Assembly: GCA_023266875.1 (NCBI GenBank) | Contig: JAHFOJ010000002.1 | Span: forward strand, 3,163-67,162 | From: Candidatus Giovannonibacteria bacterium | GTDB lineage: Bacteria > Patescibacteriota > Minisyncoccia > JACPKW01 > UBA11713 | DNA length: 64,000 nt | Direction: 5' to 3' | Part shown: one piece after another, positions 39,562-54,552 of the stretch | Numbering within the stretch: position 1 is the stretch's first letter | How the letters are laid out: the number at the start of each line of letters is the position of its first letter | Notes under the pieces: generated by a model | Told to the model about the DNA's origin: nothing | Database searches by the model: none | Seen by the model: the letters and a program-made list of their open reading frames with translations, nothing else | Position numbers and translations under genes: made by a program

Positions 39562-39570
39562 GAAAGGTTA

Positions 39571-39590
39571 CTTACAAATTCGTACGAATA
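39571..39590. promoter_or_regulatory. Copy C, the palindrome AATTCGTACGAATA, immediately upstream of the arsR start
   Basis: Seen directly. It lies 10-30 nt upstream of the ArsR ATG on the minus strand, between a TATAAG -10-like box and the start codon. Confidence 0.5.
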
Positions 39591-39663
39591 CTTCTTATAA
39601 AATACTTCTACATAAGTTCGGCATCAGATAATTCTAAATCTGTCTGTCGCGCTGCCTCTCAAT

Positions 39664-39690
39664 CTATTTACATATTCGTACGAATTACCC
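39664..39690. promoter_or_regulatory. Copy D of the motif, CTATTTACATATTCGTACGAATTACCC
   Basis: The 20-nt stretch CTATTTACATATTCGTACGA is shared across copies A, B and D; A and D share the flanking TTACCC. It sits between the HK stop and arsR. Confidence 0.5.
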
Positions 39691-39719: not shown

Positions 39720-41354
39720 CTATGCCCCATATGGAGCTGGATTCGGAAGATTTCGGCGTAGCGGCAGTCGGATCAAGAACGTGCTGCCTCTGCCTACGCC
39801 TGGTGATTCTGCCCAAATTTCTCCTCCGTGATCAGATACTATTCGTTTCGCGAGATAAAGCCCAAGCCCTATTCCTTCCGCGTTCGCTTTCGCGCCCGTA
39901 TTTCCTCTGGTAAATCGGCTGAATATTCTTTCAAGATCTTCTTTCACCATGCCAACACCCGAATCGAGGAAAGTAATCAATAAAACCTCCCCCCCGCCGC
40001 TGCTTTTCGTTTCAATTTTTATTTTTACAAAACCTCGCGGGGTGTATTTGAGGTCATTGTCTATAATATTTGTAATAACTTGGCGGAACTTTTCCTTATC
40101 CACCGAAACATCTGGCAAAGTAGAGTCCGGCTTTTCGAAAATAAGTTCAATTTGCTTATCACGTGCTGGTCCTTGAAATTCGTCAACAACATTAGCGATC
40201 ATAGGAGCGATCTGGGTTGATTCAAAATTGTAATTCATGCGCCCCGATTCAATCCGTGACAAATTAAGAAAATCATTCACTAAATTAATTAAGCGCTCAT
40301 TTGAAAGATAAACTTTCGAGAGAGTTTCTCTGACTTTAGAAGATATTTCCCCAAAACTTCCCTCCTGAATCATAGAAATATATCCTTTAATAATTGAAAG
40401 CGGAGTCCGAAGCTGATGAGTGGCAAGCGAAAGAAATTCCGATTTCAGCTGATCAAGTTTCTTTAGTTCCACATTGGCTTTCTCCAAATCCTCCGCCAAC
40501 TTCTGAATCTGTTCTCTGGAGCGAACTTCTTGTAAAACACTGCGTATTAAAAGTAACCCAAAGAGAATAACCAATACCAGAAGGCCACCGTCAAGAAATG
40601 CATCCTGTAAAGTTCTAGCAATAACTGTTCTTACTAAAAGAAATACACAAATTGAAAAAACCAGTAGTTCGGTAGCAATAACACGCACATTAAATAAACG
40701 ATGCTTTATGACAGCATATCCAAGGAAAAAGGGAAAAAAAGAAACTAAAAAATTACCAAATGGCGGGATAGGAACTCCATACCATAAAAAAAAGTTCGTA
40801 GCCCCACCTCCGAATCCAAAAATCGCCCCAAGGACAACATAAGAGATCTGCCCTTTCTTTGATTTATCGGATAGCTTATAAGATTTTGCCAATAAAATGA
40901 AAGCATATAAAACCAGCACAAAATAGAAAAAGATTAGATAAAAAGTATAAAGCGGTCCAGGACTCGGCCAAAATGGGAAAAATAATTTTGGCCCTATGCT
41001 CTTTATAAATAAATTAGAGGTAGAAAAAAGGGTAAGTAAAATCGAAATAATATAAATTAAATATAAAAAACTGCGCTTATTTTTAGACTGACCCAACAGC
41101 TCTAAAACCCAGTGAAAGTAAAAAACTGGGATAAAAATTGATCCTATAGAGAAAAATCTTATCCAGAAAAGCGCTGGTTCAACACTTGCACTCGAAAGCC
41201 ACTGCCAATATCCAAAACTCCAGACTGCTATAGCAGCCGTCATAAGAAAAAACAATTGGTTAATTCTATCCCGGAAGCTTTTATAAATAAGAAGGAACCC
41301 AAAACTTAAAGCAAATATTCCGTTTACTAATCCAGATAAAGCAAAAATATTCAT
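39720..41354 (-). CDS. Sensor histidine kinase with an N-terminal multi-TM sensor domain
   Basis: About 7 predicted TM helices, a coiled-coil, HisKA (LSLATHQLRTPLSII) and HATPase_c (...DSGVGM...GLGLYLAKRIV...). Confidence 0.85.
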   Translation of the reverse strand: MNIFALSGLVNGIFALSFGFLLIYKSFRDRINQLFFLMTAAIAVWSFGYWQWLSSASVEPALFWIRFFSIGSIFIPVFYFHWVLELLGQSKNKRSFLYLIYIISILLTLFSTSNLFIKSIGPKLFFPFWPSPGPLYTFYLIFFYFVLVLYAFILLAKSYKLSDKSKKGQISYVVLGAIFGFGGGATNFFLWYGVPIPPFGNFLVSFFPFFLGYAVIKHRLFNVRVIATELLVFSICVFLLVRTVIARTLQDAFLDGGLLVLVILFGLLLIRSVLQEVRSREQIQKLAEDLEKANVELKKLDQLKSEFLSLATHQLRTPLSIIKGYISMIQEGSFGEISSKVRETLSKVYLSNERLINLVNDFLNLSRIESGRMNYNFESTQIAPMIANVVDEFQGPARDKQIELIFEKPDSTLPDVSVDKEKFRQVITNIIDNDLKYTPRGFVKIKIETKSSGGGEVLLITFLDSGVGMVKEDLERIFSRFTRGNTGAKANAEGIGLGLYLAKRIVSDHGGEIWAESPGVGRGSTFLIRLPLRRNLPNPAPYGA

Positions 41355-42232
41355 ATCTTACTAACCTTAGCAATAATATGGACTTTTAGTGGTTCAAATA
41401 TTATGTCTGGTTCACTCGAAAAACCGGCCTCAACCAATAGCTTCTTTAAATCCTTAGGTTCGCGATAATACATAAAAGGCCATCCTAAATTTGTGACAAA
41501 CGGCATTTCCTCATTTGGATGAACATTCGCCACAATAAAAACACCACCAGGCTTTAATATATTGTAAACACTTCTTATAAGTTCTGCTCCGCTTTCTTCC
41601 GAAAAATAATCTAAGAGCCCAACCATTTCTGCAATATCAAAAAAGTCCCCGCCCGATATTAACGTTTTTAAGTTACGTGCATCACCCCTAATCCAATCAA
41701 AAAGATCTGTGGAATCAAACTCCCCAGCGAGCTTTTTGCCAGCATCAATGGCGCGCTCATCCTTATCTATGTTTAAAACTTTTATATTTAAATGCCTCTC
41801 TTGGGAGATACGGTTTATAGATTGAATAAGAGCTCGCATCGAACCACCCCCAACGCTTATAATTTTGATTAAACGAGTATCGTCTATCCTCGTTAACCTT
41901 AAAATTTCTTCGTCCATATTCATTTCAACCAGCGCAAGCCGATTTCTTAAGGCTTTCGGCTGAGAGAAACAATGATGCCAAAATAAATCCGCCAAGCCCT
42001 GCATAATTCCTCTCGAAAATAAGCCACGTTGGTGTCTGGTATACATTGCATCTAAAGCAGCGGCAGTTCCTGTATTTTGAACTACAGTTTTAGAATCATG
42101 GCTTGTAGATCGCATCATCTTCTTTAGAAATTCCGGAGAAACATGATTCATAATTGGAACGCTAAAAATCCTGATAAACTTTGTCACCAGTCCATGAGTT
42201 TCCATTTCATTAGATATGGTTGTCGTTCCCAT
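41351..42232 (-). CDS. Class I SAM-dependent methyltransferase translationally coupled to the histidine kinase
   Basis: Motif I IISVGGGSMRA, an acidic motif II and motif IV in a Rossmann-fold MTase arrangement. It overlaps the HK gene by 4 nt. Confidence 0.65.
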   Translation of the reverse strand: MGTTTISNEMETHGLVTKFIRIFSVPIMNHVSPEFLKKMMRSTSHDSKTVVQNTGTAAALDAMYTRHQRGLFSRGIMQGLADLFWHHCFSQPKALRNRLALVEMNMDEEILRLTRIDDTRLIKIISVGGGSMRALIQSINRISQERHLNIKVLNIDKDERAIDAGKKLAGEFDSTDLFDWIRGDARNLKTLISGGDFFDIAEMVGLLDYFSEESGAELIRSVYNILKPGGVFIVANVHPNEEMPFVTNLGWPFMYYREPKDLKKLLVEAGFSSEPDIIFEPLKVHIIAKVSKI

Positions 42233-42287
42233 AAATCAAGGATAGATCATTAAGAAGATAAAACCTGACGCGAACTATACCCAAATT

Positions 42288-42325
42288 ATCCCACAAAAAG
42301 CCCTTGGGAATAAGGGATAAAAAAA
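42288..42325. repeat. Direct repeat copy 1, TATCCCACAAAAAGCCCTTGGGAATAAGGGATAAAAA
   Basis: About 38 nt with 34/38 identity to copy 2, 360 nt away. It contains a CCCTT/AAGGG hairpin plus A/T runs. Confidence 0.55.
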
Positions 42326-42647: not shown

Positions 42648-42685
42648 TATCCCACAAAAAGCCCGTGGAAATAAGGAATAAAAAT
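42648..42685. repeat. Direct repeat copy 2, TATCCCACAAAAAGCCCGTGGAAATAAGGAATAAAAA
   Basis: See copy 1. Confidence 0.55.
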
Positions 42686-42767: not shown

Positions 42768-44687
42768 ATGAAGACGAAGAAAGCACGATGGATAATCGGA
42801 GGTTTAATTTTTTGGATAGTTGGATTGCTTGAGGGAAAAACTGAAGCAAATTTTGGTGGGCTCCATAGGGAATTTTCCCCATGCGCCCCAGGCAACGGCC
42901 GCGCAGTCGCGTTCAGCCCGGAGAGCAAAAATATTTTCTACACGCTCTGGAACGATACGCGAATATTCATAACCGACCCTAACAACACCACTTGCTCGGC
43001 GATTAATACTGGAATTGTTTTCGGAGCGCTCGCATACGACGGAAAACGCAAACGTCTCTGGGGCGCCGGTTATGACTATGGCCACCGCGGCGGAATTTAT
43101 CTGATTGATTCAAATGGTGCGTCCTCGCTCCAATTCAGCTTCATCCCCAACGAAACAACCTGCCTTCAGAACCAATATCATGGATATTTCACCGGACTTT
43201 CATATGATGAAGGCCCGACTTCATCGAACAGCGATGACTCGCTCTGGCTCGTCGACAATGACGGGAAAACAATTTACCACATGAGTCTGCAAGGCAATTT
43301 AATATCAAGTTCGGTAATTCCAAAGGGACCTCGTACCGGTCTCGTCGGCTGTGCAAATGGCATCGCCTCTGACAGGGACTTCTTGTGGATCACACTTATA
43401 TCTGGGTTGCATGCAGACATAAGCGGCATAATGCCTTTTGACATCGTAAAAGTCAGAAAATCTGACCCATCCACGATCGTCGAAAGTTTTTCTGCGGACA
43501 ACATAAACAACAACAGTCCAATAGGAATAGCGATCGAACGAGGAAAAACCATTCCAGGAAGAACCGGCCTATGGGTCAATTTTACCGGCGGAAATAATAT
43601 TAGACTCTTTGAAGCCGATAAAATCACTCCGGTCATTCTCGTAAACGGCTTTAGTGGCAACGCGGAAAGTTTCGGTCAAATGGCAGAATATCTAGCGCTT
43701 GACGGTTTTCCGGTGTATGTATTTGACTACGGAGAATTTACCGGACTAAATAGCGACATCTCAATCGAAGAAATCGCGGCGCTGTTCGCAGGATATGTTA
43801 ACGACGTCTTAAGAGTGACAGGAACCGGTCAAGTTGATATTGTAGTCCACTCAATGGGCGGACTTGTGGCAAGAGCATGGATCGCCGGCCTTGCGACAGT
43901 TCCGGTAAAATACACAGGACAAATTCGACGTATGATAACGCTCGGCACACTTAATTACGGAGCAGTGGCGGCGTCAATCGCAGATTTGATTATGACCAAT
44001 AACTCACCGATTCAGGGAGACGAGATGGCCCTTGGCAGTAACTTTCTATTAAACCTCCACAAGAATTGGATGGCCTTGAAATCATCAGGCGCGATTCTTC
44101 CTGATATTCTTTTTGTTGCAGGAACAAGCGGCATCGAAAATACTATTGATGAATGCGGCGGGATCGGCTGCTCGGATCAGATTGTCGATATCACAAGCGC
44201 CATTATGCCGGATGCCCCAGCAAACATGGTTCGTTACGTCCCATACATCCACGCGCATATCATGCCGTTGCCGTTCTCTCCGACGTCGATCGCTGAAATA
44301 GATTCAAAGGATCACGCCAGTTACAGAATTGCGAAAGCCTTCCTTGACGACGTAGTCTTGGACCAATGCTGCGACTCCGCCTCAATCGGATACACCCCGC
44401 CCCACGAAAGAAATGTGCCTAAAGAAAAAACGGGGACTCTGATTTTCCAGCTGATTGATAAGAAAGCCCTCACCCCGATTCTCGGCAAAAAAATAACAAT
44501 AAAACTCGATCGCGCAGCAAAAGCCGCGCTAATAGACATCAATTCGGGCACAGCCGGTGTGACAATCTTGAATCTGCCGGAGGGTTTACGCAAAGTAACC
44601 GTATCGGTAAAAGGTCGCAAAAACATAATTCTAAACATTGCAATTAAAGCTGCATACCCAATCGTGATATCAGAAATTGCAATGTGA
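42768..44687 (+). CDS. Secreted multi-domain protein with a class-2 (Bacillus LipA-like) alpha/beta-hydrolase lipase domain
   Basis: A signal peptide and an N-terminal domain of about 280 aa, followed by PVILVNGFSGNAESF ... VDIVVHSMGGLVARAW (the lipase GXSXG nucleophile elbow AHSMGG) and a C-terminal domain of about 230 aa. Confidence 0.75.
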   Translation: MKTKKARWIIGGLIFWIVGLLEGKTEANFGGLHREFSPCAPGNGRAVAFSPESKNIFYTLWNDTRIFITDPNNTTCSAINTGIVFGALAYDGKRKRLWGAGYDYGHRGGIYLIDSNGASSLQFSFIPNETTCLQNQYHGYFTGLSYDEGPTSSNSDDSLWLVDNDGKTIYHMSLQGNLISSSVIPKGPRTGLVGCANGIASDRDFLWITLISGLHADISGIMPFDIVKVRKSDPSTIVESFSADNINNNSPIGIAIERGKTIPGRTGLWVNFTGGNNIRLFEADKITPVILVNGFSGNAESFGQMAEYLALDGFPVYVFDYGEFTGLNSDISIEEIAALFAGYVNDVLRVTGTGQVDIVVHSMGGLVARAWIAGLATVPVKYTGQIRRMITLGTLNYGAVAASIADLIMTNNSPIQGDEMALGSNFLLNLHKNWMALKSSGAILPDILFVAGTSGIENTIDECGGIGCSDQIVDITSAIMPDAPANMVRYVPYIHAHIMPLPFSPTSIAEIDSKDHASYRIAKAFLDDVVLDQCCDSASIGYTPPHERNVPKEKTGTLIFQLIDKKALTPILGKKITIKLDRAAKAALIDINSGTAGVTILNLPEGLRKVTVSVKGRKNIILNIAIKAAYPIVISEIAM

Positions 44688-44699
44688 CCCGCAAAGCAA

Positions 44700-44739
44700 A
44701 AGCCTGACTAGAGGACAGTTTACTCCTCTAGTCAGGCTT
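44700..44739. terminator. Perfect 15-bp stem-loop (AGCCTGACTAGAGGA/TCCTCTAGTCAGGCT), a bidirectional terminator
   Basis: Seen directly. It is followed by TTTTCAG on the plus strand and lies between the convergent lipase and plsC-like genes. Confidence 0.7.
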
Positions 44740-44745
44740 TTCAGA

Positions 44746-45378
44746 TTAAGCGCGAATATTTTCAAAAAGCGCAAGTATTTTTTCGTGTATAACCGCCGTC
44801 CCCTCTTCTACCGTAATCGAATTAGAATCGTCAAGCCTAAACGGCTCCCCGACGCAAATTTGAATATTTCGGCCTTGGGCTTTTATTGCGATGGGGATCA
44901 CCGGGACTTTCGCGCCTAGCGCGATTGCAGATGCCCCGTGGCGAAAAACTCCAAGCGCGCCGCTTTTTTGCACTCGTCCCTCTGGGAACATCACAACCGT
45001 CTCGCCTGACCTTAGAATATCGAGCGGGGTTTTTATGGCAGCGTCTATCCCTTCCCCGCGCTTCGACGGGAAAACCCCCATAATTCTGAACAGCAACGGG
45101 ATGAGGCCAATTTTCCGCAAAAAATCAAGAAATCTGTGATTAAATTTTATATATTCCCCCATATAACGAAGCGGAACGAGCGGCGAGAAAAGCGGCAAAG
45201 AAAGTCCGATTAAAAATGAGTCGTAAAACGCAATATGATTTGAAACTATAAGCACCGGCCCTGCGACGCGTTTAAACTCTTCGCGGCCCGAAATTTTGAC
45301 CTTACGAAAAATATGAAATAGCAGCCAAGAGCCGGGTTTTATTATAAAATTCTGACTAAATTTATACCAATATTTCAT
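44746..45378 (-). CDS. Lysophospholipid/glycerol-3-phosphate acyltransferase family protein (PlsC-like)
   Basis: The NHxxxxD motif (VSNHIAFYDS) and FPEGR motif. Confidence 0.8.
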   Translation of the reverse strand: MKYWYKFSQNFIIKPGSWLLFHIFRKVKISGREEFKRVAGPVLIVSNHIAFYDSFLIGLSLPLFSPLVPLRYMGEYIKFNHRFLDFLRKIGLIPLLFRIMGVFPSKRGEGIDAAIKTPLDILRSGETVVMFPEGRVQKSGALGVFRHGASAIALGAKVPVIPIAIKAQGRNIQICVGEPFRLDDSNSITVEEGTAVIHEKILALFENIRA

Positions 45379-45500
45379 TGCGCGACCTAATTGACGATGT
45401 TAGAAATTATTTAATTTTGTCTTTTAAATATGGTGAGTAAAAATTTCTATACTTAGATTGAAATTCAAAGTCTTTCCAACTATTAGAATCTATAATTTTT

Positions 45501-46646
45501 CTACATTTTAAACATTCCGGCTAGTAAATCTCGAACAATCTCCGCCGTGCCGGCCGCCAGTGAAAAAGCCTGAGAATCTTGCCGAACATGCGAAAGCCAA
45601 TGATCTTCTAAAAATCCCTCGGCTCCGTGTAGGTGAACACATTCGCTAATAATTTTTTGACAATTCTCGTAACTAAATATTTTCAGCATTAAAATTTCTT
45701 TATCCACCGGCTTACCTTCTGCAAAAGCATCACATACCAAGTAGGTAAACTGTCTAGCGGCTTCTATGGTGGTACGCAACTCGACCATTCTATGACGAAT
45801 GACCTGTTTTTTACTAAGCGCTTCGTCAAATCGATGGCGGCTTTGAAGAAAATTAAGAGTGTCCTCCCAAATATAAAGAGCCAAAGAATTCAGCGCCACA
45901 GCTCCAATTAAACGTTCTCTTTGTAATCCGCGTAATAAGTATAGAAACCCTCGCGTGGAATCTCCAAGTAAACTACCCTTGGAGATTGAACAATCCTTAA
46001 AGCAGATCGATGCGGTATCACTTGTCTTTAATCCAACAGTAACGAGTTTCTCTCTTTTTATACCCCTTGCATCACCTGGCACTAAAAACAAACCAAGCGC
46101 CCAAATATCTTTTTGAGTTTTAGTTCGCGCTAATACAACTGTATAGTTGGCAATGGATCCATTTGTTATATATCTTTTTTCACCATTCAATATATAATTT
46201 TTACCTTTTAGCAGAGCCACTGTAGTAATAGATGCTAAGTCTGACCCGCTACTAGGATCAGTGGCAGCAAGCGCAAGATAAAATTTCCCGGCAAGTGCGG
46301 GTTTTAATATTTTTTCCTTTTGCTCATTATTTCCTAATTGAAAAATTAAAGGAGCAACCATGTTGCTTTGCACTAAAATAGACAACGCCCAGCCTAGTAC
46401 TCTAGATCGAGCTAATTCTTCGGCCAAGATAACTTCATGCCAAAAATCTTTATTACCACCCCCAACACTTTCAGGCAGGGAAAGACCGATAAATCCATGC
46501 TCGCCGACTTTCTGAAGTAGATTTACAGGAATACTTCTTGTTTTTTCCCATTCGAGCGCGTGAGGAATTACTTCTTTTGCTATAAATTTTCTAACAGTTT
46601 GCCGGAAATTTTTATGTGGTACATCTTCAAAAATAATAGGCTCCAT
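45501..46646 (-). CDS. Acyl-CoA dehydrogenase family protein, a possible acyl/aminoacyl-carrier-protein dehydrogenase
   Basis: 381 aa with the ACAD N/M/C-domain pattern (...YITNGSIANY..., C-terminal ...GAEGFLEDHWLSHVRQDSQAFSLAAGTAEI). An ACP gene lies immediately upstream. Confidence 0.8.
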   Translation of the reverse strand: MEPIIFEDVPHKNFRQTVRKFIAKEVIPHALEWEKTRSIPVNLLQKVGEHGFIGLSLPESVGGGNKDFWHEVILAEELARSRVLGWALSILVQSNMVAPLIFQLGNNEQKEKILKPALAGKFYLALAATDPSSGSDLASITTVALLKGKNYILNGEKRYITNGSIANYTVVLARTKTQKDIWALGLFLVPGDARGIKREKLVTVGLKTSDTASICFKDCSISKGSLLGDSTRGFLYLLRGLQRERLIGAVALNSLALYIWEDTLNFLQSRHRFDEALSKKQVIRHRMVELRTTIEAARQFTYLVCDAFAEGKPVDKEILMLKIFSYENCQKIISECVHLHGAEGFLEDHWLSHVRQDSQAFSLAAGTAEIVRDLLAGMFKM

Positions 46647-46650
46647 AATA

Positions 46651-46908
46651 TTAAAAAGATTCTATTGGTAGCTTACGCTTACTACTACCCTTGTTCTGAA
46701 TTACATAATCCACAATATCGCCAACTGTCTTAATATGATTCATTTTACTAGGCTCTATTGAAACTTTATATTCATCACTCAAAACAGCAATTAATTCGAC
46801 TATATCCATTGAGTCCTTGGCGATATCTTCGAGAAGTGTAGAATCATTAACCTGATTCGGTTCTTTATATAACGTAGCTCTTATTATTTCTATAATTTCA
46901 TCTTTCAT
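46651..46908 (-). CDS. Acyl carrier protein (phosphopantetheine attachment DSMD)
   Basis: 85 aa with LEDIAKDSMDIVELIAVL, a PP-binding serine motif. Confidence 0.75.
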   Translation of the reverse strand: MKDEIIEIIRATLYKEPNQVNDSTLLEDIAKDSMDIVELIAVLSDEYKVSIEPSKMNHIKTVGDIVDYVIQNKGSSKRKLPIESF

Positions 46909-47456
46909 AATAAATCCTTAAAATAAGTCTTGAATGGCTCTGTGTTTGAAAGCTTGTCATAAACCTCCTCGTCCATTTTCTCCAATTTCTGCATAATCGC
47001 ATCCAATTTCCCCTGACCATTTTCCCGGGCATACTTATCTAATTCTTCGCGTATCCATCCGATGTGACCAGTCTCATCATCAATCATTTTTTGTAAGGCC
47101 TCTTTAACCAGAGGATTTGTATCGGGTAGGTTTAGATGTTTGGTGAATTGATTAAGTGTGCGTTTTTCAAAAACTTGGGTCAAGCAAAAAATCTCAAGGG
47201 TATTTTCCGGCATCCCGAATAATTTCCCATACTCAGTTTGATAAGTTTCCGTCACCTTAACTGGTATACGTCCAAGATCCTTAATCACTTTTGTCCAACG
47301 CCAAGCATGCTCGGCCTCCTCGAGGCAGTGTTCGGTTAGTGGAATTCGATATTCACCTATAGTGGTGTGAAAAGCAAGTTTACCAAACAAGATTGAGCCA
47401 GATAGTTCACACGCACGATAGTAACTGAGAATATATAATTCTTGGTCTGACATCAT
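46905..47456 (-). CDS. Ferritin-like or diiron-carboxylate protein (putative oxidase/oxygenase subunit)
   Basis: 183 aa with the paired EEAEHAWRW and DDETGHIGW (E..H) motifs typical of diiron sites. It overlaps its neighbours by 4 nt. Confidence 0.5.
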   Translation of the reverse strand: MMSDQELYILSYYRACELSGSILFGKLAFHTTIGEYRIPLTEHCLEEAEHAWRWTKVIKDLGRIPVKVTETYQTEYGKLFGMPENTLEIFCLTQVFEKRTLNQFTKHLNLPDTNPLVKEALQKMIDDETGHIGWIREELDKYARENGQGKLDAIMQKLEKMDEEVYDKLSNTEPFKTYFKDLL

Positions 47457-47458
47457 AT

Positions 47459-48157
47459 TTATATTTGTTTATCGGCAAGAGCTTCACTCGGTCGTTTGCC
47501 CACTAATCGTCCCACTTTTTCATTAAAACCTTGGATGATTCTTATATTATCTTCTTTTGCCGGTGAAACTTGTGGCATAACGTACTCTCCTATGTGTTGA
47601 TAGTTTAGTGCGTGTTCAAGTACCTGACCCTTAACCTTAGGGTCTGCTTTGATCATTTCTTCAAGTAAATCAAAAGCGAATTGAGAATGACTGACTTCTT
47701 CGGCAGAAAATCTTGGCAGAAGATTTTTTAAAACCGGCTCTTCGGTGAGTTGTATGAGGTCTCTAAAGAATTCGGCGGCAAAATGTTCGGTGCCCATAAA
47801 ATTTACTAACTCACGTACTTTGTCCGTATATCTTTTATCCTTATCTTTTGAACGCACATCTCTAACTTCTTCATCTGTTACTGGATTGTATCCGACAATT
47901 TCAAGGTATCGTCGTAAAATAAAATAATGACCATATGCCTCAAACGCCTCTATTGTAAAAATTGAAGTTGCCGCCACGTTGTCCCAAAATAGTTCGTTCA
48001 TTTTTCCTGTGTAAATGGGGAGGTAGCACTCCACAAGACAAGCTTCGCGCAACAAGTCTAAACATTTAGTGTTCTTTAATGCCAATTCTTTATTGATTGA
48101 TTTCCAATCAACCCTGCTATCAAAAATTTTACTATTAGCGAAGTCAATGGTTGTCAT
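47459..48157 (-). CDS. Diiron oxidase/oxygenase-like protein (ferritin-like or heme-oxygenase-like fold)
   Basis: 232 aa with EAFEAYGHY, TEHFAAEFF and AEEVSHSQF His/Glu helices. Confidence 0.5.
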   Translation of the reverse strand: MTTIDFANSKIFDSRVDWKSINKELALKNTKCLDLLREACLVECYLPIYTGKMNELFWDNVAATSIFTIEAFEAYGHYFILRRYLEIVGYNPVTDEEVRDVRSKDKDKRYTDKVRELVNFMGTEHFAAEFFRDLIQLTEEPVLKNLLPRFSAEEVSHSQFAFDLLEEMIKADPKVKGQVLEHALNYQHIGEYVMPQVSPAKEDNIRIIQGFNEKVGRLVGKRPSEALADKQI

Positions 48158-48158
48158 A

Positions 48159-48989
48159 TTAGTCTTTTACTCCAATTAGTATTGTTTGTAACTCATTTTG
48201 ATAAGCGTGAATTGTATTAAATCCGGCTTGATTAGCAAGGATTTTTAAAAAATCCTCTGAACGATAGTGGGTATAAAGTTCTGCAATATTTTTCATTAGA
48301 TATTCGGAAAATTTATGCGGCATCATTCCTGATGTAAAAAATATCCCACCTTCTTTTAAATTATTGTGGGCAATTTTATAAAAATGCAGAGTATCCTCAT
48401 CGCTTAAGAACTCAGTGAACCCCGTACAGATAATCATATCGTATTTTTTGTTTTTTCGGTAGCTCTCTTCATTAAACGCATCCCCTTGCCAAAAAAACAT
48501 TTGATGCTTGTGATGATCATTTTTCTTTCCTAATACCTCTATGAGTTCACGATCCAAATCAATTCCATGCCATCTGATGCGCTTATAAAATGGGTGACTC
48601 GCGATTTGTAGTTCATGGGCGACTTCAAAAATTTCTCTCCCGAGTCCACATGGCACTGCTAAAATATCAATCGGCTCTTTGTGACGCACGTTATCTATAA
48701 GATTGTAGATTTCTTCTTTAGCGTGAATATATCTTGATCGGAGGGAACGAGACGACTTTAAATTTAAGAGTATGGAATCAAGTATTTTTCCGATAACAAA
48801 TTTACCCTTGGGTTTATTGGCATAGATATGATCAGCAAATTGATAGCTTCCTGAATTTTTAATTCCTTCACGAGCCAGCTCACTTGTTAATAGTAAATAA
48901 TAAATAGGCAAAAGATAGGACTTTCCCTCTCTCAATAATTTTCTAGGGATCGAGGAAGATTGGCGAGTTTTATTGTAACATTTTGGCAT
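48159..48989 (-). CDS. Class I SAM-dependent methyltransferase
   Basis: Motif I ILAVPCGLGREIF and WHGIDLD, with a Rossmann MTase arrangement. Confidence 0.7.
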   Translation of the reverse strand: MPKCYNKTRQSSSIPRKLLREGKSYLLPIYYLLLTSELAREGIKNSGSYQFADHIYANKPKGKFVIGKILDSILLNLKSSRSLRSRYIHAKEEIYNLIDNVRHKEPIDILAVPCGLGREIFEVAHELQIASHPFYKRIRWHGIDLDRELIEVLGKKNDHHKHQMFFWQGDAFNEESYRKNKKYDMIICTGFTEFLSDEDTLHFYKIAHNNLKEGGIFFTSGMMPHKFSEYLMKNIAELYTHYRSEDFLKILANQAGFNTIHAYQNELQTILIGVKD

Positions 48990-49743
48990 ATTTTTTGAAT
49001 TTCTTTGGCCAGGTCTTTTGGTCGCCCCCCCAAACTTTTAAACTATAGGCGGTCAATCTTTCTATACCAAAAGCAACACAGAGAGAGTTTGAAAAAGTCT
49101 TGCCATTTTTTATGTCGAAGCGTTTCCCAAAAAAATCTTCGTGATTGTTTATTGAAGCTAACGCGATTTTTCTTTTTCCATCATGTACTATAAATTCTTG
49201 TTTGAGACCTTTAAGTTGCTGAATCATTTTTGCCCCCTCATCTTGTCCAAGAAAGAAAGCATCTGTGGCATTTTTAAACTCACCATTGAACCCGAAATCA
49301 GTAAGGGTTGTTTTTACTAAATCTTCAATCCTCTTAATTTTTTCGATAATCTCTTTTTCATTTCCAATAATTACCAATTCAACCATATGAAAATCTGGGA
49401 GACGATATGGTGATTGCCAATTTCCATTCTCATATCTTGCGCAATGAGCCATTCCAAATGCGGCGTACTTCTTTACGTCTTTACCTTTTAGTTCGGGATA
49501 TACATGTAGGCAAGCCGCCGGTGTTACAAATTGCTCTGTTGAATTAAGAGTATTCATTGCAGTAAAAAGTTGATTTGGAAAATGTTTAAAATATTTTGCA
49601 TCAAACAAAACCTTTTTCGAAATGAAAAGAGGCGGGTTGAAAACTGAATCATAATGGGGACGGAAAATGTTATGCAAAAATAACACCCACGCTTGGAATA
49701 AGCGTATTTTTTGCAACATCGATTTATTATGAGTTTTAGTCAT
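48970..49743 (-). CDS. Truncated seryl-tRNA-synthetase-like class II catalytic core, a putative amino acid:[carrier-protein] ligase
   Basis: 257 aa lacking the N-terminal tRNA-binding arm. Motif 2-like is ...HCARYENG...YRLPDFHMVELVI (compare SerRS CFRREAG...RVHQFEKVE). Motif 3-like is CVAFGIERL. It overlaps the downstream ACP gene by 8 nt. Confidence 0.65.
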   Translation of the reverse strand: MTKTHNKSMLQKIRLFQAWVLFLHNIFRPHYDSVFNPPLFISKKVLFDAKYFKHFPNQLFTAMNTLNSTEQFVTPAACLHVYPELKGKDVKKYAAFGMAHCARYENGNWQSPYRLPDFHMVELVIIGNEKEIIEKIKRIEDLVKTTLTDFGFNGEFKNATDAFFLGQDEGAKMIQQLKGLKQEFIVHDGKRKIALASINNHEDFFGKRFDIKNGKTFSNSLCVAFGIERLTAYSLKVWGGDQKTWPKKFKKYAKMLQ

Positions 49744-49969
49744 CGCTCTTCAAAAATGTTTCCACTATCTTCCGAACAGATTCAAAATTTGGCATTATAA
49801 CTTCATCGTCTGTTAATTTTCGTCCCAAATGCTTTTCTATATAGCCGATAAGATCGAGAATATTCATTGAATCTAATACTTTATCCTTAAATAGGAGGGT
49901 ATTTGAATCGATGGTTCGACCCTTATCACGACAAATGCTTTTTATAAATTTTAGAAGTTCCTGTTGCAT
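49736..49969 (-). CDS. Acyl/aminoacyl carrier protein (phosphopantetheine attachment DSMN)
   Basis: 77 aa with KVLDSMNILDLIGYIE, a PP-binding serine. Confidence 0.75.
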   Translation of the reverse strand: MQQELLKFIKSICRDKGRTIDSNTLLFKDKVLDSMNILDLIGYIEKHLGRKLTDDEVIMPNFESVRKIVETFLKSDD

Positions 49970-49970
49970 A

Positions 49971-51131
49971 TTATTGAATTTTACCCCATTTAGATTTTAT
50001 GCAGTACTCTATAACTTTTCCGTAGTAATCGCGAATACCCGGCAAATGCTTTTTATAATCTGGGAGCATCGCCAACAGACTGTTTTGGAAAAAGTTTTTT
50101 GGATAGAGAAGTTGATGGGCAAAATGATTAAGAGCGGATAATACGTTTTTTAAAACGGGATTATTTGCGGATACCGCTGAATTCATAAAGAGGTCAAAAG
50201 CCTCTTCTGATACAATAGCTGGTTTAGGATAGTTTTTTTCTACCCAGCTAGAGTCTGCTTCTGCCATGCCCTTAAAACTCTCATCTATGATTTCTTGCAG
50301 GGTTAGTGATCCTGATCCGTGTGTAATATGAAAAGTTTTATTTGGGGAAAAGTTATTCCAAAAGAGGTTAAAAAGAGTACTCGCCGTATAGTCACTCGAA
50401 ATGAGATCAACAGAGTAGTTAGGAGTACCAGGAAACATTGAAGCTAAGCCAAGATACATCATGCGTATTGCTTGGTGGGGTGCAGTAAAATGACTAACCT
50501 TTCCTGTTTTACTATCGCCAATTACCGTAGAAAGGCGGTATATAGCCACAGGAACACTTTTAGCCAAGTTCTTCAAAAATACCTCCGCTTCATATTTGGA
50601 TTGCTCGTATGTATTTACAAAACCAGCCTCATGTTCTAACTCGTTTTCTTTGATAATCCCTATTCTTTTGCCGCTTACGTAAGCTGTGCTTATAAAGCCA
50701 AATTGTTTGAGGTTAGAACACTTTTGACCAAAGTCAGCAACATTTTTTGTGCCGGTAACATTTATTTGTCTTGCTTCACCCAGCGGAAGATCAAATCTCG
50801 TAGAGGCGGCACAGTGAAAAATATGGGTCGTTTTACCAAGTAGATCGTTATAGTCGGAAGAACTTTCTACCCCCATATTCTGTTTTGTGATATCGCCCTT
50901 TATAATTTGTAATCTTTCCATGAATTCTTTTTTATTTTGCAATGCAAAAAATGATTGTAAAATCGTTTTTTTATCACCACCCGATCCCTTGTCATGTACT
51001 AAAAGATAGATATTTGCTTGAGTATTTTTAAACAAAAGAGAAACGAGCTCTCTCCCTACCATCCCCGTGCCACCGGTAATAAAAATTTGTTGCGCCATAT
51101 ACTCTAATGTTGCAAGATTAGACAAGACCAA
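49971..51131 (-). CDS. NAD(P)-dependent thioester reductase (fatty acyl-CoA/ACP reductase-like, NAD_binding_4/SDR fold)
   Basis: Rossmann ITGGTGMVG, catalytic YEQSK (YxxxK), and a length and organisation typical of terminal reductase (R) domains. Confidence 0.7.
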   Translation of the reverse strand: MVLSNLATLEYMAQQIFITGGTGMVGRELVSLLFKNTQANIYLLVHDKGSGGDKKTILQSFFALQNKKEFMERLQIIKGDITKQNMGVESSSDYNDLLGKTTHIFHCAASTRFDLPLGEARQINVTGTKNVADFGQKCSNLKQFGFISTAYVSGKRIGIIKENELEHEAGFVNTYEQSKYEAEVFLKNLAKSVPVAIYRLSTVIGDSKTGKVSHFTAPHQAIRMMYLGLASMFPGTPNYSVDLISSDYTASTLFNLFWNNFSPNKTFHITHGSGSLTLQEIIDESFKGMAEADSSWVEKNYPKPAIVSEEAFDLFMNSAVSANNPVLKNVLSALNHFAHQLLYPKNFFQNSLLAMLPDYKKHLPGIRDYYGKVIEYCIKSKWGKIQ

Positions 51132-52075
51132 TTGGCTCCAAAGCCAAACGTAAATAACGCCAGATAATCTCCTTTTTTAAGATAGCCATCTTTATCCATA
51201 TCTACGAGATTAATAATATGATCACAAGAAACGGTGTGACCAACTCGTGATATATTTTTTGACCAAATCTTTTCCATTGGAGTGTGAAGTAGCTTTGAGA
51301 GTATCTCCCAACTCCTTAAACTCACATTATGAGGTACAAACCATTTAATATCTGACATGGTTAATCCCGCCCCCTTAACTGCGTTTTCAATTGTCCGTTG
51401 TGCCATTGGAAAATAAGAAGCTAATAATTCGTTTTCATGTTGCGGGGTATCCCAGTAGTAGGATTGAAATTCTTGATGAAAATATACTATCCTATTCTTT
51501 TCGGAATTTTTGGTGACTACAAGTGCTGCCGTGGCATCACTCATAATGTTGTACATAATTTCTCTTTTGGTTCCAGCTGGTAATGCATCAACAGCTGCGC
51601 ATAGTATTGATTCTTGTTGCGTGTTTGAGTTAGAAAGCAATTGATCCGCCAGATCAATTGCAGATAACAATCCGCTGCAACCCTGTTGAGATAGACCAAT
51701 TGCGTTCGCATTAAAAAGCCCAAGCTTATGTCGAAGCTCTGCGGCCGGATAACGAAATAAATTCAATGCGTTACCCTCATCTTGGTTATTAGCACTGTTG
51801 ATTCCGGAGTATAAAAAAATTCGAGTAATACTATCACCGGTAGTTTTATTTTCGCGCAAGACTTCTTCGGCGCTATTTAATAAAAGACCCTCAATGCTCT
51901 CGTTGTTGCTTTGAACATAACATTCCCTAAATCCAAAATCGTGCAATACTGATACAGGCGAAGTGATCTTCTTTTCTTCCTCGAGTTGTTCAAGCGACTT
52001 CTTATTTCTGGGAAGCCGATATGCCAGCGCCGCTATACCAATTGATGTTTGGCTTTTGTCTATATTTTTTTTCAT
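51104..52075 (-). CDS. 3-oxoacyl-ACP synthase III (FabH-like) ketosynthase/acyltransferase
   Basis: The active-site Cys block GCSGLLSAIDLA, the His block WFVPHNVS and the C-terminal FGFGANWSCLIL, all in the thiolase fold. Confidence 0.75.
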   Translation of the reverse strand: MKKNIDKSQTSIGIAALAYRLPRNKKSLEQLEEEKKITSPVSVLHDFGFRECYVQSNNESIEGLLLNSAEEVLRENKTTGDSITRIFLYSGINSANNQDEGNALNLFRYPAAELRHKLGLFNANAIGLSQQGCSGLLSAIDLADQLLSNSNTQQESILCAAVDALPAGTKREIMYNIMSDATAALVVTKNSEKNRIVYFHQEFQSYYWDTPQHENELLASYFPMAQRTIENAVKGAGLTMSDIKWFVPHNVSLRSWEILSKLLHTPMEKIWSKNISRVGHTVSCDHIINLVDMDKDGYLKKGDYLALFTFGFGANWSCLILQH

Positions 52076-52694
52076 AAGCTACGCTGATATAAAAATCTTT
52101 TACCTTAAATGGCCAAACATACCAAATAGGCGATTTAAATTTATGCATCTTAACTTTAAAAGTTGTATTTTTAATCTTATCAATAATTTCTGCTTGTTTG
52201 GGAGGTATAGCAAAACCAACCCCGACTCCTTTCATAACTGACTCTTTGATAACCCAGATTAGGCTTATTATATCTGTTCTACTCCCAAAAAAATTTTGCA
52301 CTAAGTCTATCTCATTCTGGTCAGCAACATAGTTAAGAAGAGATTTTTTATGAGGTCTAATCTTCTCTATGTCGATACCTACTTTATATGGAGCGACAAC
52401 TCCAATTCCTCGATCATACGAATGACTCAATGAATAATAAATATTATACCGTCCTTCAATATACGGCAATCCATTTTCGGCATTTTTAATAGTTACATCC
52501 TTATCTAAATCCTCGGCGACATAGTTGGTCAGGGCTTGTTTTAATGCAATGCGTCCTAGCAAAAAATCTTTCTTTCTATTATTGGAGAGTTGGCGATATT
52601 GATGAAGTTCGTTTTTATTTAGCTTCGACTTGGCATTGGAATCGATTTTATTAATGCCGACTATACTGGATGTCATGCTTATATAATCACACAA
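52002..52694 (-). CDS. 4'-phosphopantetheinyl transferase (Sfp type)
   Basis: VGIDIEKI (GxDxE) and WVIKESVMKGVGVG (W..KEA..K motif). Confidence 0.75.
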   Translation of the reverse strand: MCDYISMTSSIVGINKIDSNAKSKLNKNELHQYRQLSNNRKKDFLLGRIALKQALTNYVAEDLDKDVTIKNAENGLPYIEGRYNIYYSLSHSYDRGIGVVAPYKVGIDIEKIRPHKKSLLNYVADQNEIDLVQNFFGSRTDIISLIWVIKESVMKGVGVGFAIPPKQAEIIDKIKNTTFKVKMHKFKSPIWYVWPFKVKDFYISVAYEKKYRQKPNINWYSGAGISASQK

Positions 52695-52713
52695 AATCTG
52701 TTATAATTCAACT

Positions 52714-53214
52714 ATGATTTTAACCTACATTTATTTGGGTTTGGTATTACTTGGACTTTGTTTTATTGCTTTTCGAAATAAGACTTCACTATTAAGGGGC
52801 GATAGATTTTTAAGATTCAACTTATTTTTTTTAATAATATCAGTGGTAATTGTTTTTGTAAGAAAAACATCCCTAGAAGACTTAATCATGATTGGTCTAG
52901 CATTTGTTGTAATAATTTCGTTTTTGTTTAGAAACAAGTGGCTGCTATTTAAATACTCATCTCTTAAAACATCGGCTGTTGTAGAAGACTCATTATCAAG
53001 AGTTTTGATACCATTTCAAAAAACAGAGAGTGGATATATACTTAAACCGACACCAGAAGGAAGTACTTATTTGCGATTGGCGAATTTTTGGCCAAATTGT
53101 GCTATTATTATTTTCGGAGGCGATTGGCATTTAAAAAAGGTCGAGGTGCTAAAAAACCTTCTCAAGAAAAATTTTTCTGGGGTATTCCCCAAACTAGTAA
53201 TTAAATTAAAATAA
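52714..53214 (+). CDS. Hypothetical integral membrane protein
   Basis: 166 aa with about 4 TM helices. It is divergent from the biosynthetic operon. Confidence 0.4.
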   Translation: MILTYIYLGLVLLGLCFIAFRNKTSLLRGDRFLRFNLFFLIISVVIVFVRKTSLEDLIMIGLAFVVIISFLFRNKWLLFKYSSLKTSAVVEDSLSRVLIPFQKTESGYILKPTPEGSTYLRLANFWPNCAIIIFGGDWHLKKVEVLKNLLKKNFSGVFPKLVIKLK

Positions 53215-53218
53215 CCTT

Positions 53219-53656
53219 ATGTCACGAGTTACTAAAGTAGCTTCAATAAAAGCAGAGCCAGCTAAGGTGATAGAGTACATTGCTAATGTAAAAAATCATC
53301 CAGCTTTTATTTCGGCACTAAAATCAATCGACAACCTCAATGGGGATCCAAAGCACATGGGTGAAAGCTGGGATTGGACATTCGTTATGGGCGGAGTTGA
53401 GATCAATGGTAAGGCAGAGACGGCTGACTATGTGGCAGGCAAACACTATTCGTTCAAAACCACCGGTGGTATAGTAAGCGCTTTTAGCTACAGTGTTGAG
53501 CCCGAAGATGGCGGTGCAAGACTGACTATGGATGTGAACTATGAAGTTCCACAAAATGTGCTTGCCAAAGCAATGGACAAAGCTGTTGTTGAGCGATTGA
53601 ACAATCAAGAAGGTGATCGAGCGGTTGAGAATCTTCAAGCTATACTCGGAGTTTAA
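53219..53656 (+). CDS. SRPBCC (START/Bet v1/polyketide cyclase-like) ligand-binding protein
   Basis: 145 aa with ...AEPAKVIEYIANVKNHPAF... and a fold-typical pattern. Confidence 0.65.
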   Translation: MSRVTKVASIKAEPAKVIEYIANVKNHPAFISALKSIDNLNGDPKHMGESWDWTFVMGGVEINGKAETADYVAGKHYSFKTTGGIVSAFSYSVEPEDGGARLTMDVNYEVPQNVLAKAMDKAVVERLNNQEGDRAVENLQAILGV

Positions 53657-53687
53657 TGAATTTCTTGTCCGGCATTGTTCCAATGCT

Positions 53688-54287
53688 ATGGTTGTATTTG
53701 CTCAATATTGCTTTTACCTTATCTCCCATCCTCTATTTAAGATATTTTTTCAACCAAAAATCGTTGGCATCGAACATATACCAACGAGGCCTTTCATTGT
53801 AGCGGCAAATCATACTTCAAAAATAGACCCGTTTCTTTTGTGTCTATTACCTTTTTCAGCAGCTAAACAATTGATGCCAATTTATTTTTTAACCAGTGAA
53901 TATTATTATAAAAAATGGTATCTCAAGCCTATATTAAAATTGTTTGGTTGTTATCCCGTAGCGAAAAGGGCATGGACAATGGAAGAATTTTTGTCCAGCA
54001 GTCTTAAGAAACTAAAGAATGGAAAGGTAATCATGTTTTTCCCTGAGGGGAAAATTATAAATGATGGCAAGAGAGATAAACCTCGGCCAGGGATTGGATA
54101 TTTAATCGAAAAATCAAGTAAGCCGATTTTACCCTTACACATAGAGTGGGGTAAAAACAAAGCCCTCGCTCCTAAAAAATTAAAACTTTCTTTTGGTAAG
54201 TTACTGTCATTCCAAAATGAGAGTGGACAACTAAATTCTTATGGAAAAACAGCAGAAAAAATAATGGCAAATATTTATTCATTATAA
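53688..54287 (+). CDS. Second PlsC-family acyltransferase
   Basis: The NHxxxxD motif (AANHTSKIDP) and FPEGK motif. The ATG at 53688 is more likely than the track start. Confidence 0.75.
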   Translation: MVVFAQYCFYLISHPLFKIFFQPKIVGIEHIPTRPFIVAANHTSKIDPFLLCLLPFSAAKQLMPIYFLTSEYYYKKWYLKPILKLFGCYPVAKRAWTMEEFLSSSLKKLKNGKVIMFFPEGKIINDGKRDKPRPGIGYLIEKSSKPILPLHIEWGKNKALAPKKLKLSFGKLLSFQNESGQLNSYGKTAEKIMANIYSL

Positions 54288-54376
54288 ACTATTAGCTATC
54301 GGAAAATCTCTCATAATTGAGCATATCGGTCGCGCAAGTGGGTTAGCCCACATACTTCCTCGATACAAAATGTTGT

Positions 54377-54454
54377 TGGCGCCCCCGCCGGGATTTGAAC
54401 CCGGGTTACATGGATGAGAACCATGCGTCCTGGACCAGGCTAGACGACAGGGGC
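54377..54454 (-). tRNA. tRNA-Glu (anticodon CTC)
   Basis: Manual cloverleaf: GCCCCTG acceptor, anticodon stem CATGG/CCATG with loop TTCTCAT, T-arm CCGGG-TTCAAAT-CCCGG and 3' GCCA. The 5' half resembles canonical tRNA-Glu. Confidence 0.8.
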
Positions 54455-54552
54455 ATTGTTTTTAAAATAATATCTTTTTCTGATTAAAAATTCAATAAAA
54501 TTATACCTCATAGACCTTTTCGTGCGAAAAGGTCTATGCTGTTTTGATCTAA

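Follow-up and report, generated by a model that had tools for sequence, protein, structure and literature searches.

The window analysed here, a 64,000-nt stretch of a Candidatus Giovannonibacteria contig, contains two small genes, ferA and ferB, that lie side by side within a run of biosynthetic genes (Table 1). A preliminary description had placed two adjacent ORFs of 232 and 183 aa inside a biosynthetic operon: both ORFs lie at exactly the coordinates given there, on the minus strand, and the surroundings are confirmed as a carrier-protein-dependent cassette. Translation of these genes is coupled: the stop codon of the methyltransferase gene lies only 1 nt from the FerA ATG, the gap between the stop of FerA and the ATG of FerB is 2 nt, and the FerB and ACP2 genes overlap in the sequence ATGA.

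Table 1. Cassette genes and metal-binding motifs in the window, with the basis of each assignment.
Feature	Position	Strand	Basis and remarks
PlsC-like acyltransferase b (HX4D)	44746..45378	-	PF01553 E 5e-17
Acyl-CoA/acyl-carrier dehydrogenase, optional member	45501..46646	-	three ACAD Pfam domains; after ACP in some loci only
ACP2, 85-aa FAS-type acyl carrier protein, overlaps FerB stop	46651..46908	-	PF00550 E 9e-10; TIGR00517 E 3e-13
FerB, 183 aa, minimal catalytic-type ferritin-fold diiron protein	46905..47456	-	
FerB helix-D E128-T-G-H131, canonical ExxH	47064..47075	-	invariant 45/45; aligns to designed diiron 'due ferri' peptides
FerB helix-B E46-E47-A-E-H50, canonical ExxH	47307..47321	-	invariant 45/45
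FerA, 232 aa, divergent small acyl-ACP-desaturase-like ferritin-fold dimetal protein	47459..48157	-	ORF; AlphaFold; Foldseek; profile match to DesA2
FerA helix-D, canonical E154-x2-H157	47687..47698	-	invariant; >=90% conserved even in distant tiers
FerA helix-B E70-A-F-E73-A74-Y-G-H77, non-canonical first metal motif	47927..47950	-	E70, E73, A74, H77 invariant 44/44
SAM-dependent methyltransferase (PF12147-like)	48159..48989	-	Pfam; collinear in all loci
Amino acid:[carrier protein] ligase homologue, SerRS-like class II core, Zn Cys kept	48970..49743	-	NF005479 E 1.6e-25; Bll0957 3mey E 9e-13
CP1, 77-aa carrier protein (LDSMNILDL), directly upstream of ligase	49736..49969	-	PF00550 19.8 bits (slightly below the 20.8-bit threshold), E 1e-3; conserved in all loci
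Stand-alone thioester reductase (NAD_binding_4)	49971..51131	-	PF07993 E 2e-52; TIGR01746 E 2e-30
KAS III-fold enzyme, Cys133-His249-His280 triad	51104..52075	-	Pfam; alignment to FabH 2ebd
4'-phosphopantetheinyl transferase	52002..52694	-	PF01648 E 4e-14
Membrane protein, conserved cassette member	52714..53214	+	no Pfam match; homologues in many loci
SRPBCC / polyketide cyclase-dehydrase-like protein	53219..53656	+	PF10604 E 2e-13
PlsC-like acyltransferase a (HX4D)	53613..54287	+	PF01553 E 7.5e-19

Acyltransferases, a condensing enzyme, a ligase and a reductase are all encoded within the cassette, together with two carriers and a phosphopantetheinyl transferase (PPTase) of its own. Of the approximately 30 loci retrieved, the large majority show one collinear gene order: PPTase, KAS III enzyme, thioester reductase, carrier protein, ligase, methyltransferase, FerA, FerB and ACP, with acyltransferases and an acyl-CoA dehydrogenase in addition, the latter being optional. 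This order extends to a copy with 34% (FerA) and 45% (FerB) identity, in which the key Glu and His residues of both proteins are kept. The triad of the KAS III enzyme is retained in 20 of the 22 loci for which all three positions could be read. All hosts are CPR bacteria, DPANN archaea or a few other MAGs, with no cultured member among them; a search of 72,556 plasmids returned no FerA or FerB homologue, and the island boundaries showed no direct repeat stemming from the neighbouring tRNA-Glu. The 12-gene cassette is horizontally shared among uncultured ultra-small bacteria and archaea, and it probably builds an amino-acid/lipid-derived molecule on carrier proteins. Its ligase is homologous to the Bll0957/Atu2573-type enzymes (E 9e-13), with which it shares the Zn-binding cysteines and an adjoining small carrier gene of its own, but it is N-terminally shorter (257 aa versus 346 aa) and sits within a fixed cassette that is much larger. 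What amino-acid:carrier-protein ligases do biologically is still described as unknown (PMC9437257).

FerB has a textbook site. In its AlphaFold model (mean pLDDT 93), helices span residues 4-30, 34-60, 86-108 and 115-146, and these bear the Glu and His residues E17, E46, E47, H50, E97, E128 and H131, all invariant among 45 homologues of 53-82% identity. They provide the full canonical set of ligands, E ... ExxH ... E ... ExxH, as E17, E47-H50, E97 and E128-H131. The motifs that had first drawn attention to the pair are present in both proteins: EEAEH (residues 46-50) and DDETGH (126-131) in FerB, and EAFEAYGH (70-77), TEHFAAE (123-129) and EEVSH (153-157) in FerA. Given their invariance across homologues, the Glu/His pattern lies far beyond chance. 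The nearest structural neighbours of FerB are the small catalytic enzymes ADO, MiaE and PaaC, which bears out the likeness to the ADO/MiaE class suggested in the preliminary description, and the similarity to ADO is close; at the sequence level, however, ADO and the MiaE/DUF455-type small diiron hydroxylases are only 10-14% identical to FerB and give no match. A search with the FerB profile returned close family members only, with no distant relatives among the best 120 matches listed.

FerA is divergent and desaturase-like. Its model (mean pLDDT 96) has helices at residues 30-56, 61-88, 113-137 and 141-171, on which its own invariant Glu and His residues sit, and its top Foldseek matches are R2lox and acyl-ACP desaturases. 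Both proteins fall into the four-helix bundles of clan CL0044, and all of their top fold matches are ferritin-like. No Pfam or NCBIfam family is matched above threshold by either protein. For FerA, the ancestry can be traced through profiles and intermediates: its family profile matches DesA2 (PDB 1za0) with an E of 1.2e-9, and in an alignment of FerA with distant relatives recruited by the FerA profile (A3, n=44), 30 of the 44 sequences match PF03405 (best E 4.7e-18). The window's FerA itself does not match PF03405, and among 44 close homologues three do so, at E 0.015 or worse; homology thus holds via intermediates and profiles, whereas the curated threshold of the family is not reached. In one of the distant relatives, a ferredoxin domain is present at the N-terminus. 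Judged by these sequence relationships, FerA is a shrunken descendant of the soluble acyl-ACP desaturases, an origin that the preliminary description did not contain.

Soluble acyl-ACP desaturases desaturate an ACP-bound acyl chain with ferredoxin as electron donor. FerA has in common with them, and with DesA2 in particular, the ferritin-like fold and the layout E...E-x-x-x-H...E...ExxH, and it likewise has carrier-protein genes in its own operon. It differs in length (232 aa versus ~275-360 aa), in a loop with conserved H188, G190, Y192, D203 and N204 that is specific to the cassette clade, and in its context, an aminoacyl-carrier/thioester reductase cassette rather than fatty-acid synthesis. 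The cassette contains no reductase or ferredoxin gene that could be assigned to electron transfer.

A further difference concerns the metal site. In 44 FerA homologues (50-82% identity), E43, E70, E73, H77, E124, E154, H157 and H188 are invariant. The second half of the ligand set is canonical (E124, E154-H157), but the first half is a variant, E43 plus E70/E73-x3-H77, so FerA has the E ... ExxH ... E ... ExxH set in altered form only. The ligand Glu of the 'EExxH' motif of desaturases, and of FerB, aligns with A74, an invariant Ala, and a new Glu appears one turn earlier. The two positions covary: where position 74 carries Glu, position 70 is Gln, Trp or Arg, and where position 74 carries another residue, position 70 is Glu (occasionally Asp). 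This covariation of the carboxylate indicates selection on the FerA site and has the look of a metal ligand relocated during evolution. Since the canonical bridging Glu is missing, FerA could bind metal differently, or bind one metal only. That the first FerA motif is not a canonical ExxH had also gone unremarked in the preliminary description. The possibility it named, that one ORF is a pseudogene fragment, can be set aside, both proteins being full length relative to their families, and conserved ligand sets of the kind it asked for are found in both, across 44 FerA and 45 FerB homologues.

What links the two proteins to the carrier-bound chemistry around them? For FerB, the links are the ATGA overlap with the ACP2 gene, a gene fusion and joint absence. 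A 297-aa protein joins FerB to an ACP (PF00550 at residues 199-263, E 4e-15). This fusion is recurrent: at least 26 contigs carry it, in 9 sequence variants, and the longest of these contigs measures 76 kb. It ties FerB to ACP-tethered substrates. FerB and ACP2 are missing together in three loci (L004, L028 and L015), and one lineage, found in two independent samples, keeps FerA but has neither FerB nor the ACP. The FerA-only lineage and the FerB-ACP fusion argue for two separate enzymes rather than subunits, and the earlier picture of two small subunits is probably wrong. However, the FerA-only loci might have a FerB gene elsewhere in those genomes, and a FerA:FerB complex would fit the tight 2-nt coupling and the near-universal adjacency equally well. 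The two are not recent paralogues (hhalign E 0.057).

Building on the fold, the conserved ligands, the ancestry of FerA, the cassette membership and the FerB-ACP link established by the analysis, we consider it reasonably probable that FerA and FerB are distinct soluble ferritin-like dimetal-carboxylate tailoring oxidases, each acting on a carrier-held thioester intermediate, FerB on ACP2 and FerA on the core intermediate. Both would be made in fixed proportion from one operon. In FerB, E17, E47, H50, E97, E128 and H131 would coordinate a pair of metal ions, most likely Fe/Fe, and the enzyme would oxidise a substrate attached through the phosphopantetheine arm to ACP2, whose gene follows directly downstream. 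FerA would use its rearranged site (E43, E70 and/or E73, H77, E124, E154, H157 and possibly H188) for a separate O2-dependent desaturation or hydroxylation of the core intermediate. The ligase, CP1, the KAS III enzyme and the methyltransferase would together build this intermediate; the thioester reductase would release it by reduction, after which the PlsC-like transferases would acylate it. In this scheme, we infer the identity of the metals, the dependence on O2, the source of electrons, the types of reaction and the product. Many CPR and DPANN hosts are thought to be largely anaerobic fermenters, so O2-dependent chemistry fits them awkwardly.

A different kind of oxidation would place FerB, or the pair, with the AurF/PvfB/HamC-type N-oxygenases, oxidising the amino group of an amino acid on its carrier before this is released reductively; that would make the cassette a split counterpart of the pvf/ham pathway, whose products are hydroxylamines, pyrazine N-oxides and diazeniumdiolates. 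We regard this as possible but rather doubtful. AurF, CmlI, PvfB and HamC are likewise ferritin-like diiron enzymes, and weak matches to PF11583 are seen in 24 of the 45 members of the FerB family (best E 4.5e-7), with one fused FerB reaching 30.3 bits against a threshold of 29.6. The window's own FerB, however, scores only 16.6 bits against the same threshold. The family as a whole is borderline for PF11583 and stands, by sequence, at the edge of the AurF family, and the earlier suggestion of an AurF class is borne out for the family's position and not for the membership of this FerB. The genetic setting brings the two systems closer: the ligase, CP1 and the thioester reductase are functional equivalents of the A-T-R modules of HamD, the SRPBCC protein is that of HamE, and acylating enzymes are present too. 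PvfB and HamC work on carrier-tethered amino acids, with release by a thioester reductase and an SRPBCC protein alongside (PMC11659414), and in the lipothrenin cluster, too, an AurF-like N-oxygenase and an R2-like protein stand together with KASIII, an ACP and an ACAD (PMC10616846). Yet the cassette activates its substrate with an aaRS-like ligase and free-standing carriers rather than an NRPS, and FerB is fused to the FAS-type ACP2 and not to CP1, the likely aminoacyl carrier. Moreover, AurF is ~130 residues longer than FerB, and neither AurF nor CmlI was retrieved from the PDB chains with FerB or its family profile (phmmer). The sites also differ, FerB having apparently six ligands versus seven: in AurF and CmlI, which we take to have a seven-ligand site, the third His lies four residues before the Glu of the last ExxH, whereas FerB, in a register not aligned directly to AurF, has a nearly invariant M124 four residues before E128. 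At the equivalent position of FerA, four residues before E154, there is A150.

Could the two proteins instead be halves of one enzyme, an obligate heteromeric diiron oxidase like PaaA/PaaC or the yeast ribonucleotide reductase (RNR) pair Rnr2/Rnr4, with FerB as the catalytic subunit and FerA in a structural or substrate-positioning role with a degenerating site? The genes adjoin in almost every locus, 0-2 nt apart or overlapping, the proteins are kept together at deep divergence, and FerA has lost a canonical ligand Glu (A74). PaaA/PaaC of phenylacetyl-CoA epoxidase is also an adjacent ferritin-fold gene pair working on a thioester substrate, and PaaC is among the structural neighbours of FerB. 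However, PaaC and Rnr4 have lost most of their metal ligands, leaving PaaC without a metal site, whereas FerA and FerB both retain ligands: in FerA, five canonical ones stay invariant, together with the covarying replacement Glu. The cassette holds no equivalents of PaaB, PaaD or PaaE. The FerA-only lineage speaks against an obligate complex, as does the fact that the fusion partner of FerB is ACP and not FerA. The sole apparent FerA-FerB fusion (P0169) was discarded; it lies on a frameshift-ridden contig that has fragmented genes and lacks the rest of the cassette, the upstream genes included. On balance, we think an obligate heteromer unlikely.

Far less plausible is a role for FerB as an analogue of aldehyde-deformylating oxygenase (ADO), in which the thioester reductase would free a fatty aldehyde for conversion to an alk(a/e)ne and formate, as in the cyanobacterial AAR/ADO pair. 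A thioester reductase is indeed a fixed member of the cassette, but it belongs to the NAD_binding_4/TR family and not to AAR, and no ADO sequence was retrieved with the FerB sequence or its family profile. Furthermore, ADO acts on free aldehydes and MiaE on tRNA, whereas FerB recurrently forms a fusion with an ACP or is coupled to one, and the ligase, CP1, the methyltransferase and the acyltransferases would be left unexplained.

Rubrerythrin- or ferritin-like proteins for iron storage or peroxide detoxification, merely travelling with the operon, are a hardly credible reading: weak Rubrerythrin and Ferritin Pfam matches and public labels of homologues as 'rubrerythrin' or 'bacterioferritin' suggest it, but all matches are below threshold (PF00210 17.4 bits versus 24.5; PF02915 19.8 bits versus 22.8), FerB has no rubredoxin domain and neither protein a CxxC pair, the genes are fixed in a collinear biosynthetic operon across phyla and domains, FerB is ACP-fused and FerA desaturase-descended, and both exceed the bare four-helix storage fold with extra helices common to catalytic enzymes. 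We therefore rejected it, and view FerA and FerB as ferritin-like dimetal-carboxylate proteins that are more likely catalytic oxidases than storage ferritins. The preliminary description had left the choice between ferritin-like and heme-oxygenase-like diiron proteins; fold and ligands uphold the former, while the heme-oxygenase-like class (UndA, BesC, SznF) was rejected, as ferritin-like proteins dominate the fold searches and PF14518 matches 1/44 FerA and 1/45 FerB family members at E ~0.02. A VlmB homologue (6d9f) is present lower in the fold-match lists.

Finally, we would like to place the two families in the context of dimetal enzymes and of the organisms that carry them. Some of biology's hardest oxidations are the work of ferritin-like diiron enzymes, and new branches such as ADO, AurF, CylC and R2lox have time and again brought new chemistry. 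The FerA and FerB families are unannotated and confined to uncultured lineages; full-text literature searches turned up no account of the cassette or of either family, only analogues (the lit and ham clusters), and there is no solved relative besides the distant DesA2 match. The cassette is shared by ultra-small bacteria and archaea believed to be without most lipid and secondary metabolism, and it bears on three questions at once: the roles of the diiron proteins, the purpose of amino-acid:carrier-protein ligases, and the molecule made by these symbionts. At its most far-reaching, and as we see it improbably, FerA and FerB would be the founders of two new diiron (or Mn/Fe) families, FerA with a relocated carboxylate that gives new reactivity; jointly they would install an N-O, hydroxyl or alkene function on carrier-tethered intermediates of a new aminolipid or signal molecule, in a cassette exchanged between CPR and DPANN that would provide the first pathway role for amino-acid:carrier-protein ligases. 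The natural FerB-ACP fusion makes the substrate class of FerB directly testable.

Both small ORFs singled out in the preliminary description, FerA and FerB, are real genes; all five of the Glu/His motifs cited for them are present, and neither is a fragment. The methyltransferase stop lies 1 nt from the FerA start and the FerA stop 2 nt from the FerB start, while the end of FerB shares an ATGA overlap with the start of the downstream ACP gene; these four genes are translationally coupled. Homologue searches (E ≤ 1e-3) returned 180 clusters for FerA and 96 for FerB, the latter rising to 334 in a profile search, and nearly all of the homologue clusters lack a Pfam assignment. Invariant in the alignments are E43, E70, E73, H77, E124, E154, H157 and H188 of FerA (n = 44) and E17, E46, E47, H50, E97, E128 and H131 of FerB (n = 45), a Glu/His conservation that is far beyond chance. 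Confident AlphaFold models (mean pLDDT 96 and 93, respectively) show each protein as a four-helix bundle whose two pairs of helices bear the invariant residues.

Foldseek searches against the PDB gave only distant matches for both proteins (best E about 2e-3): R2-like ligand-binding oxidases, plant acyl-ACP desaturases, DesA2 and a protein with ADO activity for FerA; ferritins, ADO-active proteins, PaaC/PaaA and MiaE for FerB. No Pfam or NCBIfam model exceeded its threshold for either, and family members lean towards PF10118 and Rubrerythrin for FerA and towards Rubrerythrin, Ferritin, COQ7 and AurF for FerB. Both are members of the ferritin-like superfamily, one of the two classes proposed at the outset; the other, heme-oxygenase-like, is without support, as the Foldseek matches and Pfam leanings point elsewhere. 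FerB falls into no defined family and is borderline to AurF.

FerA branches off from the desaturases, and one of its ligands appears to have shifted position. Its family profile matches Mycobacterium tuberculosis DesA2 (E 1.2e-9), and soluble acyl-ACP desaturase (PF03405) is matched by 30 of 44 sequences in an alignment of FerA and 43 full-length hits from its profile search (best E 4.7e-18); FerA itself is homologous to PF03405, yet below the threshold for membership. When the profile was run exhaustively against 1.84 billion representatives, no more than 191 proteins reached E ≤ 1e-3. In the alignment with DesA2, as in that of the FerA and FerB profiles, the first Glu of the 'EExxH' motif corresponds to E73 of FerA, and the ligand Glu to A74, an invariant Ala. 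Across the wider family, residue 70 is Trp, Gln or Arg in sequences with Glu74 and Glu, occasionally Asp, in those with Ala74 or Gly74; the sole exception to this covariation is one sequence with Q70/S74. We infer that the carboxylate ligand may have been relocated by one helical turn, which would imply continued selection for metal binding. No electron-donor gene is encoded in the cassette; a distant relative of 338 aa, in which an N-terminal 4Fe-4S ferredoxin domain is fused to the desaturase-like domain, hints that a ferredoxin could be the donor in the wider family.

Do FerA and FerB form one complex? Their near-universal adjacency and tight coupling would suit this reading, which we nevertheless regard as unlikely, since FerB occurs fused to ACP and a FerA-only lineage exists. 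The natural FerB-ACP fusion (locus L030, 4443-5336; 297 aa, PF00550 at residues 199-263, E 4e-15) sits in a high-GC cassette version and is annotated by JGI as just 'acyl carrier protein'; it is real, since at least 26 contigs, the longest of 76 kb, carry it in nine variant sequences, and it links FerB to substrates tethered to ACP2, the FAS-type carrier. Conversely, three loci keep the cassette through FerA and lack both FerB and ACP2: L015, and L004 and L028, one lineage sampled twice and binned as Anaerolineaceae (FerA at 10001-10699 and 1163-1861, respectively). This lineage also lacks the acyltransferase and has a cytidylyltransferase after FerA, plus GNAT acetyltransferases in L028. The sole apparent FerA-FerB fusion was discounted for its error-ridden, truncated context. 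Taken together, the FerB-ACP fusion, the FerA-only loci and the confinement of a FerA-FerB fusion to that context favour two enzymes rather than one complex.

Features of the cassette and other features in the window
Feature	Position	Strand	Details
Main operon			PPTase, KAS III-fold enzyme, thioester reductase, CP1, aa:carrier-protein ligase homologue, methyltransferase, FerA, FerB, ACP2
Divergent arm			Membrane protein, SRPBCC, PlsC-like acyltransferase
FerB	46905-47456	minus	183 aa
FerA	47459-48157	minus	232 aa
aa:CP ligase homologue	48970-49743	minus	N-terminus about 90 residues shorter than Bll0957
CP1, divergent carrier	49736-49969	minus	77 aa, LDSMNILDL; between thioester reductase and aa:CP ligase
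KAS III-fold enzyme	51104-52075	minus	Triad Cys133-His249-His280
tRNA-Glu(ctc) gene	54377-54454		Adjoins cassette end
24-nt direct repeat	39211-39234, 39566-39589, 39662-39685		Intergenic, between 39071 and 39720
7TM-receptor histidine kinase	39720-41354		
PF12147-like methyltransferase	41351-42232	minus	Outside cassette, adjoins histidine kinase
37-nt direct repeat	42287-42323, 42648-42684		Intergenic, upstream of 639-aa secreted lipase-like gene

As two enzymes, FerB, with its canonical six-ligand site, would most likely activate O2 at a diiron centre and oxidise a substrate that the phosphopantetheine arm of ACP2 carries; C-H hydroxylation or desaturation are candidate reactions. N-oxygenation is a further candidate, given the borderline AurF similarity and a precedent: AurF-like HamC takes tethered valine as its substrate, and reductive release comes afterwards, in a cluster that also has an SRPBCC protein (PMC11659414), much as the cassette combines FerB, thioester reductase and SRPBCC. 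Another analogue is the lipothrenin cluster, with KAS III, ACP, ACAD, an R2-like protein and an AurF-like N-oxygenase, whose product is an N-hydroxylated N-acyl-threonine (PMC10616846). FerA, on account of its ancestry, would most likely desaturate or hydroxylate a thioester of the core branch, either acyl or aminoacyl. That the thioester reductase is followed by an ADO-like deformylation we consider improbable, and a non-biosynthetic ferritin or rubrerythrin role, for all the family's Pfam leanings, more improbable still.

A literature search found no description of the cassette. Of the roughly 30 loci fetched, the great majority share its collinear gene order, an acyl-CoA dehydrogenase following ACP2 in some only; one divergent collinear copy (FerA 34%, FerB 45% identical) has every gene on one strand. 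CP1 scores just under the PF00550 threshold (19.8 versus 20.8 bits), overlaps the ligase start by 8 nt and is kept in every copy, so that, alongside ACP2, the cassette has two carriers. The KAS III-fold enzyme has His in place of the FabH Asn, a KAS I/II feature unusual for the FabH fold; its triad recurs in 20 of the 22 loci with all three positions read, the other two having Ser249. The ligase, whose alignment spans Bll0957 residues 139-327, retains the conserved Cys residues by which characterised enzymes coordinate their active-site zinc, a class whose biological role was still unknown according to a 2022 review (PMC9437257). Elsewhere in the window lies another PF12147-like methyltransferase, distantly paralogous to the one in the cassette and about 19-24% identical to cassette methyltransferases (tblastn).

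The hosts are uncultured without exception: CPR bacteria (Paceibacterota, Zambryskibacteria, Minisyncoccota, Berkelbacteria, Buchananbacteria), DPANN archaea (Pacearchaeota, Nanoarchaeota) and a few MAGs labelled Chloroflexi, Dormiibacterota, Eisenbacteria, Rhodothermales or Gammaproteobacteria. On Pacearchaeota contig JAWCQE010000001.1 (3992-11494), a whole bacterial-type cassette (PPTase, KAS III, thioester reductase, carriers, ligase, methyltransferase, FerA, FerB, ACP, acyltransferase) adjoins a phage-type integrase. The contig is unmistakably archaeal (PolD DP1/DP2, Cdc6), which indicates that the cassette moved horizontally between domains. No FerA or FerB homologue was found among 72,556 plasmids; the FerB of the window shares a ≥90% identity cluster with a Paceibacterota protein. 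The cassette region (44000-54500) has a higher AT content than the DNA on either side (GC 0.35-0.39 versus 0.41-0.46), and no island-boundary direct repeat derived from the tRNA-Glu was found at the cassette in the window. Two other sets of direct repeats, a 37-nt pair (92% identical) and three 24-nt copies (two identical, the third 79% identical), may be regulatory sites.
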